DNA of 64,000 nt from a virus. Each line of letters opens with the position of its first letter. Position 1 is the stretch's first letter. This document shows positions 27,428 through 27,515 of the stretch, in pieces. Where the stretch lies: positions 133,959-197,958 of the IMG/VR virus record IMGVR_UViG_3300031603_000001; one strand, given 5' to 3'. Under the pieces are notes generated by a model that saw nothing but the letters and a program-made list of their open reading frames with translations, made no database searches and was not told where the DNA came from. A program made the position numbers and the translations under genes.

Positions 27428-27515
27428 TGGAGAGTGACAGGATCGAACTGCCGCGCACGATGCTGAATTGGTACAACCAACACCGTAGCTCTACCCAAAC
27501 TGAGCTTAACTCCCC
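27428..27515 (-). ncRNA. tRNA-like RNA with Ala-type acceptor (G3.U70, A73) and anticodon arm extended by 13 nt
   Basis: GGGGAGT-TA-AGCTC-AGTTTGGGTA-GAGCT-[ACGGTG TTGG TTGTA CCAA TTCAG CATCGT]-GCGC-GGCAG-TTCGATC-CTGTC-ACTCTCC-A. Confidence 0.8.

Follow-up and report, generated by a model that had tools for sequence, protein, structure and literature searches.

Phage-encoded tRNA look-alikes have been known since the stable RNAs of T4 and T5, and no function has been assigned to them. Together with the T5 RNAs, the T4 species 1 and 2 RNAs (rnaC, rnaD) are among the closest counterparts of the RNA described below. The T5 record (GenBank AY543070) gives the label 'tRNA-like stable RNA with unknown functions' to RNA1, RNA2 and RNA3, which lie among the tRNA genes; the first two of these form an acceptor stem and a T arm, with an enlarged central part. 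Mycobacteriophage DS6A carries a tmRNA gene that comprises the tRNA-like domain (TLD) only; inhibition of tmRNA has been reported for a similar molecule (Hudson et al. 2014, PMC4131195). YrlA (RF02553; Chen et al. 2014, PMC4201824) has a tRNA-like module with a long helix at the place of the anticodon stem; it is circularly permuted, so that the two ends of the molecule lie in the long helix, which binds Ro, and the acceptor is closed. Its gene neighbours one for Ro60/TROVE.

The RNA considered here is encoded by an uncultured marine phage, whose 197,958-bp IMG/VR record is complete according to CheckV. Our analysis centred on positions 133959–197958 of that record, a stretch of 64,000 nt hereafter called the window; coordinates are those of the window except where genome positions are given. 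The gene at 27428–27515 is genuine and conserved; it encodes an RNA in the shape of a tRNA and sits between two small same-strand genes, which encode proteins of 129 and 160 amino acids. Its parts are as follows.

27428–27515, minus strand: tRNA-shaped RNA of 88 nt, with G1 at 27515 and the discriminator A73 at 27428 (read directly)
27509–27515, minus strand: 5′ strand of the acceptor stem, GGGGAGT, with G3 at 27513; 7/7 positions pair with 27429–27435
[quoted passage not shown]
27487–27506, minus strand: D arm, stem AGCTC/GAGCT and loop AGTTTGGGTA, with A14, G18 and G19 present
27457–27486, minus strand: elongated anticodon arm of 30 nt, with an outer stem ACGGTG/CATCGT around an 18-nt core (MFE fold)
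27463–27480, minus strand: the 18-nt core, TTGGTTGTACCAATTCAG, which replaces the 7-nt anticodon loop
27436–27452, minus strand: T arm, GGCAG-TTCGATC-CTGTC, preceded by a short variable loop (read directly)

Direct reading of the acceptor stem gives the pairs G1–C72, G2–C71, G3·U70 and G4–C69, with A73 as the discriminator. This bears out the original prediction of an alanine acceptor set (GGGGAGT/ACTCTCC with G3·U70 and A73), to which G2–C71 and G4–C69 can be added, and the sequence contains all members of the identity set of alanyl-tRNA synthetase (AlaRS), namely G3·U70, A73 and G2–C71. U8 is present, and the positions involved in tertiary interactions are all intact. After A73 (27428), the 3′ trailer reads C-A (27427–27426). 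Relative to canonical tRNA (RF00005), the body has the 7-bp acceptor stem, a D arm with G18 and G19, a T loop of the TTCRA type and a T stem with 5/5 pairs; the anticodon part lacks the 5-bp stem closing a 7-nt loop with U33, anticodon and R37, the loop being 18 nt long. The D-arm and T-arm consensus is shared with canonical tRNA-Ala of bacteria and phages, and an ordinary phage tRNA-Ala(UGC) in IMG/VR (L035) has an acceptor identical to that of the present RNA, GGGGAGT/ACTCTCC. From canonical tRNA-Ala, the RNA differs in the size of its loop (18 nt versus 7), in having no defined anticodon and in one extra base before the D stem.

At its default settings, ARAGORN makes no call at 27428–27515, and searches of Rfam, including RF00005, return no match with E up to 10. 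When the loop was trimmed in silico to 7 nt, ARAGORN called a tRNA at its default threshold in 7/8 variants, and trimmed bodies were likewise called at 95% of threshold. Scanning the genome for a T arm together with 7/7 acceptor pairing yielded nearly only true tRNAs, in addition to the 88-nt element and other mimics. On the strength of the trimmed-loop calls and the genome scan, the body is tRNA-like well beyond chance. The RNAfold z-score of the element is −2.55.

In shape and genomic setting, as read from the sequence, the RNA resembles the T5 RNA1–3 type. Like the T5 RNAs, it is encoded amid phage tRNA genes of the same strand, and like RNA1 and RNA2 it keeps the acceptor stem and T arm while its enlarged middle probably cannot decode. 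The T5 RNAs differ in that they range from 73 to 144 nt, have branched inserts and are devoid of the alanine acceptor set, and they show no sequence similarity to the present RNA, which is a complete cloverleaf altered in the anticodon arm alone.

Where the anticodon loop would be, a conserved segment of 18 nt lengthens the anticodon stem to a hairpin of ~13 bp. The best fold of the arm is a helix of about this length that has a single bulged U and is capped by a UAC triloop. In this preferred fold, the six outer pairs are followed by U·G, U–A, G–C and G·U, then by the bulged U, and finally by UUG/CAA closing the triloop. The arm had been drawn with the stem ACGGTG/CATCGT, which we retain, and with TTGG/CCAA, a TTGTA loop and a 5-nt bulge, which we do not: for the window sequence, RNAfold gives −12.7 kcal/mol for the arm in the continuous register, compared to −7.1 kcal/mol for TTGG/CCAA with the 5-nt bulge. 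The same ranking is seen in a homologue, L006, described below (−10.3 kcal/mol for the continuous register versus −5.6 kcal/mol for the 5-nt bulge). The sole substitution in the core, G to A in L006, converts the U·G of the long-helix register to U–A.

A low-threshold ARAGORN call of tRNA-Thr(GGU) with a 17-nt variable arm was rejected, as its stem GGTG/TACC is absent in L006 (ACGG versus TACC), position 37 is U and the fold is worse. The likeness of the core to the anticodon arm of a phage tRNA-Glu (UUGG/CCAA, UUCAG) was judged a post-hoc coincidence. A search of the phage for an antisense partner or target of the arm gave an exact complement of 11 nt at the longest, which is about the chance level.

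The RNA and its flanks show zero changes in three further assemblies (L019, L020 and L021, from JGI 3300031741, ENA ERZ27316312 and Logan SRR8862232). With JGI, ENA and Logan in full agreement on the RNA, an artefact of assembly is ruled out. A diverged homologue was located via a relative of the downstream 160-aa gene: the first 80 bases of the 984-bp JGI contig L006 are a 5′-truncated copy of the RNA, and the linkage between gene and RNA is conserved there. Between the window and L006, 17/18 core positions are identical, compared to 37/57 (65%) in the rest of the RNA (simple binomial P ~0.0045). In the outer anticodon stem, two pairs are changed on both sides and still paired, and one pair is broken; in the T stem, pairs 49:65 and 51:63 are altered on both sides with pairing kept. 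Across the two sequences, 98% of cells are paired, versus 34–46% with the 3′ partners slid, although with only two distinct sequences (the three other assemblies add no variation) the covariation amounts to one comparison, and shuffle statistics should not be over-read. The 3′ half of the D arm is conserved in L006. The stretch C69-U70-C71-C72-A73-C-A is identical there as well; since the contig ends 3′ of position 3, conservation at 3:70 is shown for U70 alone. These comparisons indicate that the RNA gene is under selection, with a core more conserved than the tRNA body and with stems that covary.

Conservation also bears on whether the element could be a decaying tRNA-Ala pseudogene with an 11-nt insertion in the anticodon loop. 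Rejection by standard tRNA finders would be in keeping with decay, as would the presence of a working tRNA-Ala elsewhere in the phage. However, the inserted region is the best conserved, the stems are compensated in a relative whose neighbour protein is just 73% identical, and the tertiary-interaction positions are intact. A pseudogene does not fit a molecule in which the rebuilt part is the best-conserved part, and we consider this explanation very unlikely.

The 18-nt core is unique in the phage genome. In a tRNA context, it is absent from IMG/VR, from JGI metagenomes and from 185,579 prokaryote genomes, exact and context-anchored pattern scans giving chance matches or none, and BLAST against isolate phages gives no match. 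The large terminase of the phage is only distant kin to the terminases of isolate phages, and its sole relative in IMG/VR is a 24.8-kb fragment. The immediate surroundings of the RNA gene contain the following features.

27403–27423, minus strand: hairpin 3′ of the gene, AGTCTAGG/CCTAGGCT (read directly)
27522–27549, minus strand: hairpin GGGCCT...AGGCCC, ending 6 nt before G1 (read directly)
26903–27385, minus strand: downstream 160-aa gene, with relatives P0002 (73%) and P0003 (67%)

Among 5.8 billion proteins, the 160-aa gene has two relatives and the two genes upstream of the RNA have none, and a search of IMG/VR found no relatives of either neighbour gene. P0003 is encoded on a 13,879-bp contig of JGI 3300072015, behind a gap of 235 nt, and this contig is predicted to carry a complete third copy of the RNA. 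The predicted fold of the 160-aa protein is all-helical (pLDDT 70); Foldseek gave no PDB match at E ≤ 0.001, and PHROGs gave no match. A profile search identified a distant relative of the gene, L024, in which an ordinary tRNA-Lys(CUU) occupies the slot of the RNA. A scan for consensus terminators made no call on the 27403–27423 hairpin in the window; in L006, the equivalent downstream hairpin is followed by TTTTT, giving it a terminator-like form. No sigma-70-like promoter was found on the strand of the RNA gene.

Given such a setting, the element might be a processing signal of the t-element type. RNase P and RNase Z would be drawn to its tRNA shape and cleave the polycistronic transcript in the interval that separates the 129-aa gene from the 160-aa gene, and the RNA would serve no other purpose. 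The position between same-strand genes with no promoter match, the hairpins on both flanks and the ordinary tRNA in the same slot of the distant relative are all consistent with this. Yet a signal of this kind needs the acceptor and T arms only, and here the loop replacement is the most conserved segment and a D arm with its tertiary-pair positions has been retained. We regard processing as an unlikely account of the element.

The 88-nt RNA has much company in this phage. ARAGORN finds 23 tRNAs, all on the minus strand, and Rfam adds further tRNA matches. Nearly all of the tRNA genes end with N73, C and often A, not with an encoded CCA, and the 88-nt RNA ends likewise in A73-C-A. A CCA-adding enzyme domain was not found in the phage, so 3′ completion would fall to the host. 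As its discriminator, the phage tRNA-His (genome 128736–128808, minus strand) has A73 instead of C73, with an encoded G at −1. There are at least five other tRNA mimics in the phage, all of which lack G3·U70. These and other relevant loci are listed here.

Window 22431–22510, minus strand: second odd tRNA (Rfam tRNA, 47.8 bits), with A3–U70 and A73
Genome 116664–116758 and 116773–116877, minus strand, in L003: two mimics with long hairpins in place of the anticodon loop
Genome 125100–125232, minus strand, in L003: mimic with a ~60-nt insert
Genome 130187–130274 (L003:15188–15275), minus strand: tRNA-Gly(UCC) with the GNRA-capped D-loop hairpin GACA-GAAA-TGTC (Rfam, 52.7 bits)
Genome 126302–132379, minus strand, in L003: six to seven Y-RNA-like copies that start with AACCYYACAGCAA
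Window 672–2042, minus strand: RNA ligase (PHA02142 OB fold plus RNA_ligase)
Window 4545–4667, minus strand: 78-aa ORF matching just the first 42 positions of RtcB

The mimic at 22431–22510 has a 14-nt anticodon loop, GCACCGTAGAGGTC, which folds to an arm of 9 bp that has one C bulged out and GTAGA as its loop. Those at genome 116664–116877 and 125100–125232 have Rfam tRNA scores of 26–36 bits, and the D-loop insertion of tRNA-Gly(UCC) is flanked by a direct repeat, GTAGA. At 3:70, the other mimics have A–U, A–U, G–C and C–G, and hence alanine identity is not common to the set. The alanine marks of the 88-nt RNA may just be inherited from a tRNA-Ala ancestor. A minihelix-like element was also seen at 33677–33721 (minus strand), with a 7-bp stem GGGCGTG/TACGCCC and a 4-bp T arm GGGG-TTCGATT-CCCC; it is devoid of a D stem and of an anticodon arm.

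The RNA ligase is relevant to another reading, in which the RNA is a precursor tRNA. An 11-nt segment would be excised and the halves joined, for example by the phage ligase, to give tRNA-Ala(GGC) or, with other cuts, a Glu(UUC), Asp(GUC) or Thr(GGU) anticodon on the alanine body. Removal of TTGTACCAATT leaves UUGGCAG (U33, GGC, A37), an anticodon that matches the acceptor identity, and ARAGORN calls the product tRNA-Ala. The only tRNA-Ala of the phage is UGC and 53% of its alanine codons are GCU plus GCC; conservation of the whole 18 nt would fit an anticodon loop plus a recognised insert; and the ligase and an RtcB fragment are encoded, the remainder of RtcB not being found in the phage genome. 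However, a match to alanine would arise by accident about one time in four, because the four anticodons are equally reachable. No splicing endonuclease domain (tRNA_int_endo) was found in the phage. The arm contains no bulge-helix-bulge, a motif in which a 4-bp helix lies between two 3-nt bulges; it has either one bulged U or, in the alternative register, a 5-nt bulge plus loop. In the intron-bearing tRNAs of giant viruses, archaea and eukaryotes, extra anticodon-loop nucleotides pair with the anticodon region, as they do here, but the insert follows position 37 of a normal U33-NNN-R37, whereas a cut at the canonical 37/38 site in the present RNA would leave U37 and a Thr anticodon. Nor do the sister mimics fit the scheme: at 22431–22510 there is no single excision that would yield U33, and at genome 116773–116877 U33 is reached only together with an implausible ACA anticodon. 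We know of no protein-spliced tRNA intron in bacteria or their phages. Taken together, we give the precursor reading a small chance of being correct.

The Y-RNA-like copies invite comparison with YrlA. Several of the copies that start with AACCYYACAGCAA are circularly permuted tRNA modules with sub-threshold matches to RF02553 (22–35 bits), and a 484-aa DUF2828 ORF lies just upstream of them (genome ~132.4–133.8 kb), 28 kb away from the 88-nt RNA. The 88-nt RNA is like YrlA in having a tRNA-like module that carries a long helix in the position of the anticodon stem, and it shares its phage with YrlA-like copies and DUF2828. Unlike YrlA, it is not permuted. RF02553 gives no match in 27300–27700 (E up to 10), and no TROVE domain was found in the phage. 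The 5′ strand of the arm, GUUGGUUGU (27463–27480, minus strand), is complementary over 9 nt, with one wobble, to GCAACCAAC, the leader of two Y-RNA-like copies (genome 132372 and 128613, minus strand); this complementarity may well be due to chance.

The RNA had been likened to the TLD of tmRNA, and a version of that idea would make it a stand-alone alanyl acceptor whose role is to enter ribosomes that have stalled, to titrate SmpB or to supply a transferase with alanine. G3·U70, A73 and the T arm are indeed common to the RNA and the TLD, as are the lack of an anticodon and the occurrence in a phage, and there is a precedent in the TLD-only gene of DS6A and in the similar molecule that reportedly inhibits tmRNA. 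In the TLD, however, there is no D stem or anticodon arm, and SmpB sits in that place; judging from the known complex, the 5-bp D stem and the long anticodon arm of the present RNA would fill the space that SmpB occupies. In a full tmRNA, helix P2 runs on into pseudoknots and a tag reading frame. ARAGORN in tmRNA mode and the tmRNA families of Rfam return nothing for the element, no SmpB, AlaRS or FemAB-type transferase domain was found in the phage, and the sister mimics lack G3·U70. With the D and anticodon arms in the place of SmpB and no partner encoded, the analogy to the TLD does not hold up well, and we think a tmRNA-like role highly improbable.

To see how widely such molecules occur, we scanned IMG/VR with a narrow pattern, a class-I D arm followed by 7–25 extra nt before the T loop. 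At least 112 good cloverleaf bodies were found, with at least 109 distinct middles. By a crude rule, the 109 middles listed include 44 that resemble canonical 37/38 introns (many in giant-virus bins), 10 with a long variable arm and 19 that are unclear; the other class among those listed, with 36 members, has a stem enclosing 14–32 nt with no U33/R37, i.e. an anticodon-less long arm. One of these 36, on L123 (minus strand, 3470–3552), shows both G3·U70 and A73, and AAAAA forms the loop of its long arm. Odd RNAs with G3·U70 and A73 were noted on other IMG/VR phage contigs too: an RNA of 56 nt made up of acceptor stem, T arm and a single hairpin (L033, minus strand, ~1762–1817), a body that ARAGORN calls tRNA-Asn(GUU) (L028, minus strand, 12100) and an RNA with no clear D arm (L038, minus strand, 8694).

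The explanation we favour, and to which we give about an even chance, is that the element functions as a gene whose product is a tRNA mimic unable to decode and descended from a tRNA-Ala. G3·U70 suffices for recognition by AlaRS, which ignores the anticodon. By these textbook rules, the present RNA would probably be chargeable with alanine, and host AlaRS can probably charge it. Host RNase P, 3′ trimming and CCA addition would process the RNA like a tRNA, and in the ribosomal A site it would not pair with a codon. Thus, the proposal that the RNA is chargeable yet unable to decode is a fair one, as the alanine acceptor set is present and there is no usable 7-nt anticodon loop. On this view, the RNA would belong with the many other tRNA mimics of the phage and would not be a rescue RNA of the tmRNA type.

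As to what a non-decoding mimic might do, there is about one chance in three, in our estimation, that the RNA imitates a tRNA and, by way of its body and conserved arm, binds a protein that recognises tRNAs. Candidate partners would be a host factor for tRNA-targeting defence or tRNA processing, or a phage protein of the RNA-repair or Ro-like kind. The conserved long arm is probably the contact for this putative partner. A more specific form, which we view as rather unlikely, has the alanylated RNA acting as an anti-defence decoy, uncuttable and non-decoding, whose long arm captures a host nuclease or sensor directed at tRNA. In a rarer variant, the RNA would be a masked 'pro-tRNA', with the 11-nt insert shielding the loop until phage repair enzymes yield tRNA-Ala(GGC).

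tRNAs are now seen as one of the chief arenas in which phages contend with bacterial defences. The element adds one variant to a known, unexplained class of phage tRNA-like RNAs, and it is a clean case: the alanine-type cloverleaf is complete, the anticodon loop alone has been rebuilt, and the rebuilt part is the most conserved. With such a clean anatomy, the RNA lends itself readily to experiments on charging and binding and to pull-downs. An RNA ligase, a DUF2828 protein and Y-RNA-like RNAs of permuted form are encoded in this phage too, so that the role of such mimics could come to light in a single system.
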